Source: a virus. Taken from it: 64,000 bases of DNA. The stretch is taken from positions 38,830 to 102,829 of the IMG/VR virus record IMGVR_UViG_3300050016_000171, one strand, 5' to 3'. Shown one piece after another: positions 38,754-53,063 of the stretch (position 1 is its first letter; each line of letters begins with the position of its first letter). The translations under genes and the position numbers were made by a program. The notes under the pieces were generated by a model. It was not told where the DNA came from. It did no database searches and saw only the letters and a list, made by a program, of their open reading frames with translations.

Positions 38754-39715
38754 AGCGATAGATCCTTCATGTTTTTCGAATCGTAACCCAACACGAAACC
38801 CATCTCGCCGCCCTTGTCAGAATCGTTTTTCAAGTACTTGATCTTCGAGTTGGCCCTCAGGCGTGCCACGCTTTCCTCGATTGGAATCCCCAAGCAAAGG
38901 AATGAAGCCGCGATCTCGCGAAGATAGGCCAGTTCCAATCCCTTGGTCTTCTCAACCAGCTCGTCCAGTTCCGCATCCGAGACCTGATTCTTGCACGTGA
39001 ATCTTATGTAGGCCTCGCGCGTTGCTTCGGTGGGAGACTTGACGCCGATGACTAGATCGAAACGTCCGGGACGCTTGATAAATCGATCCTCAAGCATTTC
39101 GGGTTTGTTGGTCGTCGCAAGGTGGACGATATTGTTGAACTGGTCTTGACCATCCAAAAACGAAAGAGCGCACTTGACCTGATGCTCGCCCTCGTCCCCC
39201 GTGAACAGCCCTTCGATATCTTCTTGCAGAGTGAGGATTGGGCGGTCGGGCTCCGCAGATCGGAACATTGAGATGGCCGCGGTCGCCAATGAGAAATCAG
39301 AGATGGAGAACACGACGCCGCCGACCTTCATCACCTCGTCACACATCTGGCGCGCGACCGATGTCTTGCCGCAGCCCGGACGGCCATAGAGAAGGATGCC
39401 GCGCTTATGGACGAATCCGCGTGACTTGTATATGGCGCCACTCTCCCAGAACTTTTGCATCTGCTTCAGAATGTAATCCGACGGGAGCCCGGGCAACGAA
39501 ATCAACTGGTCCGTAGGGAACATCTGAGTCTGGAAAACGATGCCGTCGTTCTGCGAATTGTGGAAGGTGTAAATCCCAACCGGCAGACTCTTCTCCATGA
39601 TTGCGACAGGCTTGAAGCGATAGCCTGACTCGGAGACCCAGCCCGACCGAGGCTTCTTGGACTGCAACCGATCTGCTATTGCTGACGATACATATTCGCC
39701 GTCTACGTAGGGCAT
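38750..39715 (-). CDS. AAA+ ATPase
   Basis: KRGILLYGRPGCGKT, EDI, LDG, ATTN.PE.L, RPGRFD. Confidence 0.88.
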   Translation of the reverse strand: MPYVDGEYVSSAIADRLQSKKPRSGWVSESGYRFKPVAIMEKSLPVGIYTFHNSQNDGIVFQTQMFPTDQLISLPGLPSDYILKQMQKFWESGAIYKSRGFVHKRGILLYGRPGCGKTSVARQMCDEVMKVGGVVFSISDFSLATAAISMFRSAEPDRPILTLQEDIEGLFTGDEGEHQVKCALSFLDGQDQFNNIVHLATTNKPEMLEDRFIKRPGRFDLVIGVKSPTEATREAYIRFTCKNQVSDAELDELVEKTKGLELAYLREIAASFLCLGIPIEESVARLRANSKIKYLKNDSDKGGEMGFVLGYDSKNMKDLSL

Positions 39716-49295: not shown

Positions 49296-49611
49296 GAGAC
49301 GTCTGGAAAACGAGGCCAACTTTACATAGGAGGTGAACCGATGACCCTAGCACTTTAGGAGGTGTCATGTGGTATCACCCGTAATAGTTTCGAAGCGTCC
49401 CAAAAATGCCGAACCCAAAAAGGGCCGGAAGGGACGTAAGATCGGGAAAGGTGTCAGGAAGGTCGCGCACTCGCGCTGGTCTACCTACGCCAACCTGATC
49501 GCGCATTGCAAACAACGCCGGGAGCAGTCAATCAAAACCCGCACGTGTTTGGCTTGCGACAAAGTTTTCCACAGTCATAATGCCGCAAAACGACATATAT
49601 GTCTGTAGAAG

Positions 49612-49770
49612 GAATCGTGAGGAGTGGTTAGGCTAATCTCACATGGGATTCCCTGCGAAGTTCAAAGCGAACATCCCCGTCAAGGGGCAGGTTCGGAAGT
49701 CGCGTTCCGACGCGGGGATTGCTAATCAACTCGAACGAGGCGCCATCGCGCGCCTACCTCACAGCGATTC
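49612..49770 (+). ncRNA. candidate multibranched structured ncRNA
   Basis: Nested closing helices GAATCG/CGATTC, GTGAGG/CCTCAC, GAGTGGTTAG/CTAATCAACTC plus at least four inner hairpins. Confidence 0.55.
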
Positions 49771-49772
49771 GT

Positions 49773-49835
49773 GGAACGTTACTCAGCATGAGTAGTCCGA
49801 AAGGACAGATGGCCGTGCGAGTCGGCTGCGGTCCA
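49773..49835 (+). ncRNA. anticodon-less tRNA-like element
   Basis: Acceptor-like GGAACGT/GCGGTCC, UA, short D hairpin, GTCC-GAAA-GGAC in place of the anticodon arm, T arm GGCCG-TGCGAGT-CGGCT. Confidence 0.55.
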
Positions 49836-49841
49836 CAGGAT

Positions 49842-49918
49842 GGGCTCGTAGTTCAGCCCGGGAGAACGCCTGCTTTGCAAGCAGGATGTCGGGGGTTCGA
49901 ATCCCTCCGGGTCCACCA
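49842..49918 (+). tRNA. tRNA-Ala(TGC)
   Basis: Cloverleaf, G3:U70 pair, TTCGAAT T-loop, encoded CCA. Confidence 0.95.
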
Positions 49919-49936: not shown

Positions 49937-50012
49937 TGGGGTGTAGCGCAATCGGTAGAGCATTCGGCTGTTACCCGAAAGGTTGTTGGTTCGAGTCCAA
50001 CCGCCCCAGCCA
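49937..50012 (+). tRNA. tRNA-Asn(GTT)
   Basis: Cloverleaf, anticodon arm TTCGG-CTGTTAC-CCGAA, G73 and CCA. Confidence 0.95.
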
Positions 50013-50083: not shown

Positions 50084-50452
50084 ATGGAAGTTTTCAAGTG
50101 TTTGTATTGTGATTCGGACGTGAACCCGGAAACGGGATTGCCTAAGCGCGGTCCTAAGAAATCGAAGTTCTGCTCTAAAACTTGTAATAGCAATCTCAGA
50201 GTTGACAAGTGGAGAGAGCGAACTAAGATACGCGCAGTTGAATACCTCGGCGGCAAATGCGCCCGATGCGGTTATAGCAAGTGCATGTGGGCCTTGCAGT
50301 TTCATCACCGAGACCCAGAGATGAAGAAGTTCACTATCTCAAGTTGTTGGCGTCACGTTCGTTCTTGGGACGTCATACAGCAAGAATTAGACAAGTGTAC
50401 TCTTCTTTGCGCAAACTGCCACGCCGAAGAGGAAGACAGATTAAGAAATTGA
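50084..50452 (+). CDS. HNH endonuclease in the tRNA array
   Basis: KFCS..C; GGKC..CGY.KC..AL.FHH.DP; ELDKC.LLCANCH. Confidence 0.88.
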   Translation: MEVFKCLYCDSDVNPETGLPKRGPKKSKFCSKTCNSNLRVDKWRERTKIRAVEYLGGKCARCGYSKCMWALQFHHRDPEMKKFTISSCWRHVRSWDVIQQELDKCTLLCANCHAEEEDRLRN

Positions 50453-52742: not shown

Positions 52743-52816
52743 GTGACGGTAGCTCAACGGCAGAGCACGCGATTGTGAATCGCGGTACGAGGGACCAACA
52801 CCCTCCCGTCACCCCA
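52743..52816 (+). tRNA. tRNA-His(GTG), atypical
   Basis: Perfect stems, C73 and CCA; T-loop ACCAACA; T rather than G at position -1. Confidence 0.85.
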
Positions 52817-52818
52817 CT

Positions 52819-52897
52819 AGGGTGATAGAGGAGTCTGGTTGTCCTCGCCTCTCTCGGACAGAGGAGAACGGTGGTTCAAATCCACCTCACCCTACCA
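52819..52897 (+). tRNA. tRNA-Pro(CGG), atypical
   Basis: CCTCT-CTCGGAC-AGAGG anticodon arm, A73 and CCA; A37 and an A1:U72 pair. Confidence 0.85.
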
Positions 52898-52906
52898 ATT
52901 TTTTCT

Positions 52907-52982
52907 TGGCAGGTAGTGTAATCCGGTAGCACAGTTGGCTCTGAACCAACGAGTCTGGGTTCGAATCCTAGCCCGCCAACCA
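52907..52982 (+). tRNA. tRNA-Gln(CTG)
   Basis: U1:A72 pair, GTTGG-CTCTGAA-CCAAC arm, CCA. Confidence 0.92.
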
Positions 52983-52989
52983 CATCGAT

Positions 52990-53063
52990 AGGCTGGTAAG
53001 CTTAATGCAAACTGCCCGGCTCCAACCCGGGACTTGGGAGTTCAAGTCTCTCCCGGCCTGCCA
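52990..53063 (+). tRNA. tRNA-Trp(CCA)
   Basis: CCCGG-CTCCAAC-CCGGG arm, G73 and CCA; D loop lacks GG. Confidence 0.88.

Follow-up and report, generated by a model that had tools for sequence, protein, structure and literature searches.

A candidate non-decoding tRNA look-alike downstream of a structured RNA in a tRNA cluster of a peat-soil phage

Introduction

In vertebrate nuclear RNAs and in plant mitochondria, the shape of a transfer RNA (tRNA) has a well-documented use as a processing signal. In the MALAT1-mascRNA and MEN-beta systems, ribonuclease P (RNase P) reportedly cuts 5′ of a tRNA-like element and thereby forms the 3′ terminus of the RNA that precedes it. In phage T4, RNAC and RNAD (species 1 and 2) are made from tRNA precursor transcripts. 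They are described as RNAs “of yet unknown functions” (PMC9697503). The t-elements of plant mitochondria are non-decoding tRNA-like folds between genes, at which RNase P and RNase Z make transcript ends (Forner et al. 2007, PMC1920247), and in the YrlA Y RNAs, a permuted tRNA-like module sits within the Ro-binding stem (Chen et al. 2014, PMC4201824). No paper on a non-decoding tRNA-shaped processing signal in phages was found in literature searches. Here, we describe a two-module element at positions 49612–49835 of a 64,000-nucleotide (nt) stretch of viral DNA (IMG/VR record IMGVR_UViG_3300050016_000171, positions 38,830 to 102,829), which is termed the window throughout. Module 1 is a closed multistem RNA, referred to as the scaffold RNA, and module 2 is an anticodon-less tRNA look-alike. 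The source is an uncultured phage from peat soil with a genome of ~103 kb, of which the window is a part. Analysis of the two modules leads us to propose, tentatively and at less than even confidence, that the look-alike may be a tRNA-derived non-decoding module at which an RNase P cut sets the 3′ end of the scaffold RNA.

Results

The gap between the stop codon (49606–49608) of a gene encoding a small zinc-finger protein, P0001, and the gene for tRNA-Ala spans 233 nt and holds both modules on the plus strand. A preliminary description of this sequence had placed a 63-nt cloverleaf 2 nt after the multistem RNA and 6 nt before tRNA-Ala, and both placements are confirmed. The look-alike (49773–49835), delineated with RNAfold and a scan for acceptor/T-arm geometry, is separated from the scaffold RNA by G49771 and U49772 and from tRNA-Ala, which starts at 49842 on the same strand, by a CAGGAU spacer. 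Its acceptor stem (49773–49779/49828–49834, GGAACGU/GCGGUCC) forms six of seven pairs, with an A·G mismatch at 4:69, and is followed by a D-like hairpin (49780–49794), a GAAA-capped 4-bp hairpin (49795–49806), a variable region of sequence AGAU, a T arm (49811–49827, GGCCG-UGCGAGU-CGGCU), and the discriminator, A49835. As had been described, the anticodon arm is replaced by GUCC-GAAA-GGAC, both in the sequence and in the RNAfold structure, the D arm is shortened, and no CCA is encoded, the acceptor being followed by A-CAGGAU. The D-like hairpin, (UA)CUCA-GCA-UGAG(UA), has a 3–5-nt loop, (A)GCA(U), that contains no GG. The T arm, which had been called intact, does have a 5-bp stem and a 7-nt loop in which G53–C61, U54, and A58 are kept, but it is not fully canonical, as position 55 is a G. 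All four stems are intact, with one mismatch in ~20 pairs, and none of 200 shuffled sequences is as stable as the predicted fold (−27.4 kcal/mol, z-score −3.11).

Compared with a canonical tRNA, the look-alike thus retains a 7-bp acceptor stem on a 5-bp T stem with a 7-nt loop, lacks G18 and G19 of the D loop, and has a 4-bp stem with a GNRA loop in place of the 5-bp anticodon stem and 7-nt anticodon loop. The parts that are tRNA-like are those read by RNase P and the tRNA end-processing enzymes: a 12-bp acceptor/T-arm helix with U at position −1 and G at position +1 on its 5′ side. Bacterial RNase P prefers U at −1 and G at +1. Type A bacterial RNase P uses RCCA, so the look-alike, having no CCA, is possibly a poor substrate.

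Shape and energy prove little here, because the window contains 418 cloverleaf-shaped local folds of 55–85 nt, many of them in coding sequence, because the z-score is moderate, and because the minus strand of the stretch itself folds with a z-score of −2.59. A stricter geometry is more informative. Both strands of the 64 kb (128 kb in all) were scanned for an acceptor stem of 7 bp, one non-pair at most being allowed, that directly adjoins a T stem of 5 bp; the T stem was to have a closing G–C pair and a loop of 7 nt with U at position 1 and A at position 5. The matches were five of the six true tRNAs and the look-alike (49773–49834), and nothing else. The sixth, tRNA-His (52743–52816), was missed because its T loop reads ACCAACA, not UUCRANY; its Rfam score is nonetheless 54.8 bits. 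In Markov-random copies of the window, the mean was 1.03 matches, from which the probability of a match on this strand of the 233-nt gap is P ~0.002, and as the remaining 31 nt form two perfect hairpins, the odds of a chance occurrence are lower still. As judged by this geometry, the look-alike is tRNA-related, either by descent or by convergence.

Family models place the look-alike outside the described classes. ARAGORN calls the six other tRNAs, but not the look-alike, and finds no transfer-messenger RNA (tmRNA). The Rfam tRNA model (RF00005, threshold 29 bits) gives no match at E ≤ 10 on the look-alike, either within 801 nt or with the 76-nt element alone, and no other Rfam model, the mascRNA, YrlA, tmRNA, and TLS models included, gives a match on it at E ≤ 10, even with the 76 nt alone. 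The scores that are obtained fall on the true tRNAs: the sole regional match to the mascRNA model (RF01684) is tRNA-Ala at 18.6 bits versus a cut-off of 42.5, the YrlA match (19 bits versus a cut-off of 69) spans two true tRNAs, and the permuted-tmRNA model reaches only 14 bits, on tRNA-Ala. Pair 3:70 of the look-alike is A–U, not the G3·U70 alanine identity pair of tmRNA. No tmRNA, YrlA, ribozyme, or riboswitch identity is supported by Rfam. With respect to a Y RNA partner, no member of the Ro60 family is present among the 19 window proteins scanned against Pfam, a scan that was not aimed at Rsr/Ro60. Taken together, the modeled fold and the geometry indicate that the look-alike truly derives from, or mimics, a tRNA and does not decode.

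The scaffold RNA had been described as a fully nested multistem RNA at 49612–49770, which is borne out by both the minimum free energy and the centroid structures from RNAfold. An outer stem, P0 (49612–49617/49765–49770, GAAUCGU/GCGAUUC), closes the structure, and its 3′ strand ends 2 nt from the acceptor stem of the look-alike. Inside P0 lie P1 (49618–49622/49757–49761, UGAGG/CCUCA), P2 (49626–49631/49722–49727, GGUUAG/CUAAUC), hairpin a (49636–49649), an inner four-way junction (49650–49718), and the P3 hairpin (49738–49755, AGGCGC/GCGCCU). The inner junction, which was not mentioned in the preliminary description, comprises an 8-bp closing stem and three short hairpins (local fold −34.4 kcal/mol); it is cloverleaf in shape, its details are not tRNA-like, and it is specific to this lineage. 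The scaffold RNA folds with −61.2 kcal/mol (z-score −2.67; 2 of 200 shuffled sequences are equally stable). The G·U pairs are consistent with the plus strand, which is also the more stable of the two strands when folded (−90.2 as compared with −82.5 kcal/mol).

Two related contigs, UViG_3300014501_000002 and UViG_3300050133_000063, were recovered by an alignment-based scan of IMG/VR with a profile of a 548-amino acid (aa) tail fiber-like protein. One of the relatives, L002, is a complete 111.5-kb genome with terminal repeats, and the other, L001, is a 46.5-kb fragment; they are syntenic with the window in iteron-like repeats, a P0001 homologue, tRNA-Ala, and virion genes. In the relatives, a 30-nt BLAST match (84% identity) lies upstream of the P0001 homologue, and within the non-coding part of the gap, only the scaffold RNA can be aligned between the two lineages. 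The corresponding RNA in L002 (1335–1483) has the same outer architecture and a z-score of −3.8, with none of 200 shuffled sequences as stable. Helices P0, P1, P2, and P3 occur in the same order in both lineages, together with conserved blocks at the 5′ side (UGAGGAGUG) and the 3′ side (AACGAGGCG...CGCCUACCUCACA) and a small internal CUCACA hairpin. L001 and L002 count as one sequence, as they are identical over the RNA block through recent mosaic exchange.

The helices are maintained by compensatory changes. They were picked by hand in each sequence, and the alignment was also built by hand because MAFFT misaligned the 5′ halves of the scaffold RNAs. P1 shows no difference between the window and L002. 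In P2, GGUUAG/CUAAUC in the window corresponds to GUGACA/UGUCAC in L002, with five of six pairs changed on both sides and all still paired; in P3, a C–G pair of the window is U–A in L002; and in P0, three pairs are changed on both sides. Over P0, P2, and P3, two-sided changes are found at nine hand-paired positions, and none is broken. With the hand-guided alignment, RNAalifold yields 30 pairs, of which 15 are unchanged, 4 are changed on one side, 11 are changed on both sides, and 0 are broken. The inner domain is a four-way junction in the window versus a long hairpin in L002. On this comparison, the scaffold RNA belongs to a small new family of phage structured RNAs, so far confined to this peat-phage group, in which the outer helices and junction sequences are fixed and the inner domain is free to vary.

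Further members were sought in several collections. With blastn and megablast, the stretch had no match in 50,697 phage records, an alignment search of IMG/VR and JGI metagenomes with P0001 gave the same two contigs only, and IMG/VR scans with the HNH protein of the window, or with the 548-aa protein alone, gave none. Motif scans for the scaffold RNA in IMG/VR and in GTDB genomes returned no further true member. The nine other IMG/VR stretches returned are coding or lack the 5′ motif, and the 29 matches in GTDB genomes fail the hairpin or the 5′-motif check, L039 excepted; in L039, the hairpin is present, the 5′ motif is absent, and the sequence reads as an ordinary terminator-like hairpin.

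Within the L002 leader, the 5′ motif UUUGAGGAGUGACACA occurs twice (1284–1299 and 1359–1374), 75 nt apart, and CCUCACACGA is also found twice. In both phages, the 5′ UGAGG could pair with the distal CCUCA or with a nearby internal (C/U)CUCA, such that the scaffold RNA may have two alternative folds.

The compensatory changes and the geometry test both oppose the view that the folds arose by chance in an intergenic spacer, for which the abundance of cloverleaf-shaped folds could be cited. The same stretch could instead be coding, with a 50-aa open reading frame (ORF) at 49643–49795 that has a codon-usage score of 0.114, in the range of real genes and reached by 0.3% of shuffled sequences, and that was predicted by gene callers on four contigs. 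However, this ORF has no usable Shine-Dalgarno sequence (a GAGGAG ends 18 nt before the ATG, whereas the neighboring genes have GGAGG 5–9 nt upstream) and no homologue in 5.8 billion proteins, it overlaps the tRNA-like element by 23 nt, and the nucleotide blocks that the window has in common with L002 are read in different frames. The ORF was rejected on these grounds, and an explanation in which the stretch holds no RNA gene at all, being either coding or folded by chance, is regarded as highly improbable.

The look-alike was also compared with eleven tRNAs of the phage and its relatives. The best global alignments have ~44 of 64 positions identical, which is no higher than the identity of unrelated tRNAs among themselves. 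The 3′ strand of its acceptor stem, CGGUCCAC, is the same as in tRNA-Ala of L001, and its T loop is a single base away from UUCGAGU. Descent from tRNA-Ala is a guess from these likenesses. If tRNA-Ala were the parent, the change of pair 3:70 from G·U to A–U would have removed the alanine identity mark, and every stem would have been rewritten on both strands while remaining paired, which would imply selection for shape.

The relatives show how fast tRNA genes come and go in this group. The window encodes tRNAs for Ala, Asn, His, Pro, Gln, and Trp; L001 encodes those for Ala, His, and Thr; and L002 encodes a weak His, Pro, and Met. The weak tRNA-His of L002 (2231–2301) scores 34.6 bits, has an A·C pair in its acceptor stem and a T loop of UUAGACU, and is missed by ARAGORN. 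A comparison of L002 1852–2700 with L001 2452–3897 shows that L002 is without a 1.45-kb block of L001 that holds the 3′ part of the P0001 homologue, two ORFs, and tRNA-Ala. An exact pattern derived from the look-alike had no match in a scan of IMG/VR. In L002, the region 1512–1602, which begins 28 nt after the scaffold RNA, has acceptor/T-arm geometry (CGUGUCG...CCCGG-UGAAAUU-CCGGG-UGACACG) and a D-like hairpin, GUCU-AAUUGGC-AGAC. As the body of this region is poorly defined (z-score −1.07), it is a lead only as a homologue of the look-alike.

Given this rapid turnover of tRNA genes in the group, the main rival explanation is a dead tRNA gene: the look-alike would be a functionless remnant, perhaps of an old tandem duplicate of tRNA-Ala, from which the D and anticodon loops were deleted, with the scaffold RNA as a separate neighbor. 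The differing tRNA sets and the block lost with tRNA-Ala from L002 are in line with this explanation, as are the acceptor strand identical to that of the L001 tRNA-Ala, the missing CCA, the A·G mismatch, the G at position 55, the lack of any score with the Rfam tRNA model, and the absence of the look-alike from the only relatives that could be reached. An old pseudogene, however, would be expected to have eroded stems, whereas the D, cap, and T stems are perfect and one acceptor pair is broken. The losses fall exactly at two loops, one of which is replaced by a stable GNRA tetraloop, and the sequence is as far from the tRNAs at hand as unrelated tRNAs are from one another. Relative to tRNA-Ala, each stem is changed on both strands and still pairs, which would indicate selection on the fold if tRNA-Ala were the parent. 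A dead tRNA gene is considered somewhat unlikely, but it is a rival to be taken seriously.

Transcription across the modules is suggested by contigs from two metatranscriptome runs, which cover 49653–49813 and 49701–49890, the latter extending from the scaffold RNA through the look-alike and 49 nt into tRNA-Ala. These contigs fit co-transcription of the three or, alternatively, carry-over of DNA. A further RNA-run contig (49202–49607) runs into Illumina adapter sequence 4 nt ahead of the base at which pairing in the scaffold RNA begins, which weakly hints at a discrete RNA end at 49607. Contigs of one DNA run and three RNA runs match the stretch and give no covariation signal; the only differences are three single-base insertions at 49742–49746 in one DNA contig of depth 2.

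That these contigs cross the junction of the modules would also be expected if modules 1 and 2 formed one uncut RNA of ~225 nt, in which the tRNA-shaped 3′ domain serves as a handle for tRNA-binding proteins or protects the 3′ end, similar to the tRNA-like domains of tmRNA, YrlA Y RNAs, or the 3′ ends of plant viruses. The two modules are separated by only 2 nt, which can pair, so that their closing helices could stack, and a gene for a small zinc-finger protein with look-alikes of the double-stranded RNA (dsRNA)-binding type lies beside the scaffold RNA in both lineages. Yet RNase P, which is needed 6 nt downstream for tRNA-Ala, would meet an equally good helix here. The absence of Rfam YrlA, tmRNA, and TLS matches and of an ARAGORN tmRNA, the A–U rather than G·U pair at 3:70, and the ~28 nt that separate the scaffold RNA from the next candidate in the relatives also argue against a single uncut RNA, which is judged to be quite unlikely.

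The wider organization of the window places both modules near a change of strand. Up to ~46 kb, the minus strand carries replication genes, including those for a Prim-Pol, a family A DNA polymerase, and UvrD and SNF2 helicases; after ~46 kb, the plus strand carries small genes, two tRNA clusters, GroES, and virion or sugar genes. The DNA polymerase is at most 36% identical to any in the 50,697-record phage collection, such that no close phage is deposited there, and the same DNA recurs in metagenomes of peat and permafrost produced by many studies. An NCCA 3′ end is encoded by all six true tRNAs of the window. In the first cluster, tRNA-Ala(UGC) (49842–49918, called by ARAGORN and scoring 64.9 bits with Rfam) and tRNA-Asn(GUU) (49937–50012, found by both programs) each have an encoded CCA, and tRNAs for His, Pro, Gln, and Trp (52743–53063, ARAGORN and Rfam) make up the second.

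The position of the look-alike in the first rightward transcription unit, beside the divergent control region, is a frequent site for counter-defense genes and would suit a decoy or sponge for host tRNA-directed defense enzymes or tRNA-binding factors, a role that the preliminary description had also raised. Such a decoy would keep the tRNA shape and, with no anticodon loop to cut, be immune to cleavage there. Most known anticodon nucleases, however, recognize the anticodon loop itself, which would make a loop-less mimic poor bait. In addition, the look-alike is present in a single copy and is not conserved in the relatives, and no defense, counter-defense, or Pth2-like gene was identified nearby, all of which render a decoy improbable.

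The gene for P0001 (49369–49608, plus strand), whose stop codon is separated from the scaffold RNA by 3 nt, encodes a small, very basic CCHC zinc-finger protein with a C-x2-C-x12-H-x-C finger. Its look-alikes according to a protein language model are C2H2, zf-met, and JAZ-type fingers, some of them dsRNA-binding. About 25 homologues are found in metagenomes, among them P0230–P0235 at 76–81% identity, and the L001 protein is 53% identical; tblastn of P0001 against the 50,697 phage records gave no match. A 107-kb ENA contig encodes an HNH protein, P0003, that is 58% identical to that of the window. The P0001 gene adjoins the scaffold RNA in both phage lineages, upstream of it in the window and ~260 nt downstream of it in the relatives. 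A weak sigma-70-like promoter match (49554–49581, plus strand, TTGCGA-16 nt-CATAAT) lies inside the end of the P0001 gene, ~30 nt before the scaffold RNA; it matches at 9 of 12 positions, and with seven sites found by the scan versus 4.0 expected, it is a lead only.

Directly before the start of P0001, both lineages have a mini-ORF of five codons (MTLAL* at 49342–49359 in the window and MTITL* at 1714–1731 in L002) that has a strong Shine-Dalgarno sequence of its own and may be a leader peptide or a device for translational coupling. The non-coding leader that precedes P0001 (49069–49317) is present in contigs from three metatranscriptome runs and has no sequence similarity to the L002 leader. 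Downstream, a contig of RNA run X16 has 49923 fused to 50462, with the intervening 538 nt, in which tRNA-Asn and the gene for the HNH endonuclease (50084–50452) are located, missing. This junction suggests a variant genome without the tRNA-Asn/HNH cassette, or removal of the cassette. Its right-hand end, 50462, is the exact start of a GGGGC...GCCCC-ACCA minihelix. From there to 50850, a T arm (GUGGG-UUCGAUC-CCCAC) lies upstream of a D arm and a Gly(GCC)-like anticodon arm, an arrangement that looks, in sequence, like a rearranged or split tRNA.

Discussion

In the model favored here, which takes up the processing tag suggested in the preliminary description, module 2 would descend from, or copy, a tRNA gene, keeping the acceptor/T-arm helix and a compact four-way junction while losing the features required for decoding and charging: a GAAA cap stands in for the anticodon loop, the D loop has no GG, pair 3:70 is A–U, and there is no CCA. 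Both modules would be co-transcribed with tRNA-Ala and tRNA-Asn. Host RNase P would then cut between U49772 and G49773 and between U49841 and G49842. The first cut would give the scaffold RNA a 3′ end consisting of the closing stem plus 2 nt, and the look-alike would be released as a small RNA of ~63–70 nt, which would then be trimmed and CCA-tailed, or degraded. We infer every step after transcription.

Several observations weigh against this model. The look-alike differs from all six true tRNAs of the window in having no CCA. G49771 and U49772 could pair with C49836 and A49835 to form a 9-bp acceptor stem, by which cleavage would possibly be shifted or hindered, and with a G at position 55 of the T loop and no GG in the D loop, a canonical elbow is not expected. 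The RNA-library contigs run unbroken over the predicted cut at 49772/49773, as would an uncut precursor or carried-over DNA, and contigs cannot show ends. Among the relatives, the interval in L001 between the P0001 homologue and tRNA-Ala consists of ORFs, with the look-alike absent, and L001 and L002, the sole relatives within reach, have no clear homologue of it. Their scaffold RNA lies upstream of the P0001 homologue and is followed only by the poorly defined region at 1512–1602 of L002. The rapid turnover of tRNA genes in this phage group means that dead tRNA genes are to be expected, and the comparison of scaffold RNAs involves two independent sequences only, in a hand-guided alignment.

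A broader version of the processing model would have the scaffold RNA and its tag form one conserved phage module, the bacterial-virus counterpart of MALAT1-mascRNA, cut by RNase P, with P0001 as its protein partner and the L002 region at 1512–1602 as a diverged tag. This version seems unlikely. The tRNA arrays of phages are usually interpreted only in terms of codon usage or counter-defense; if the processing model is correct, phages would also use the tRNA shape as a signal for processing or recognition. The look-alike is a single instance, and its value is that of a well-defined candidate.

Structural comparisons place this candidate among the systems described above. T4 RNAC and RNAD are likewise small stable RNAs beside phage tRNA genes, a likeness by description only; the stretch has no match in the 50,697-record collection. 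The t-elements, which can be compared by concept only, are organellar and flank mRNAs, whereas the phage element follows a structured non-coding RNA in a tRNA array. Similar to the phage RNA, YrlA is a non-coding RNA in which a tRNA-like module is combined with a further structured part; in the phage, however, the tRNA-like module is contiguous and appended at the 3′ side. With canonical tRNAs (RF00005), the look-alike shares the acceptor/T-arm geometry, G53–C61, U54, A58, four arms, and a position in a tRNA array, and it differs from them in having no 7-nt anticodon loop, no D-loop GG, and no CCA, and in the G at position 55. The main differences from MALAT1-mascRNA and MEN-beta (RF01684) are that those RNAs are vertebrate and nuclear, with a long upstream RNA that ends in a triple helix, whereas the upstream RNA of the phage element is 160 nt and has its own closing stem, and its cleavage and CCA addition are putative. 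As in these systems, a non-decoding tRNA-shaped element directly adjoins the 3′ end of a longer non-coding RNA; its acceptor/T-arm helix is intact, its D loop is reduced, and its anticodon arm is non-functional.

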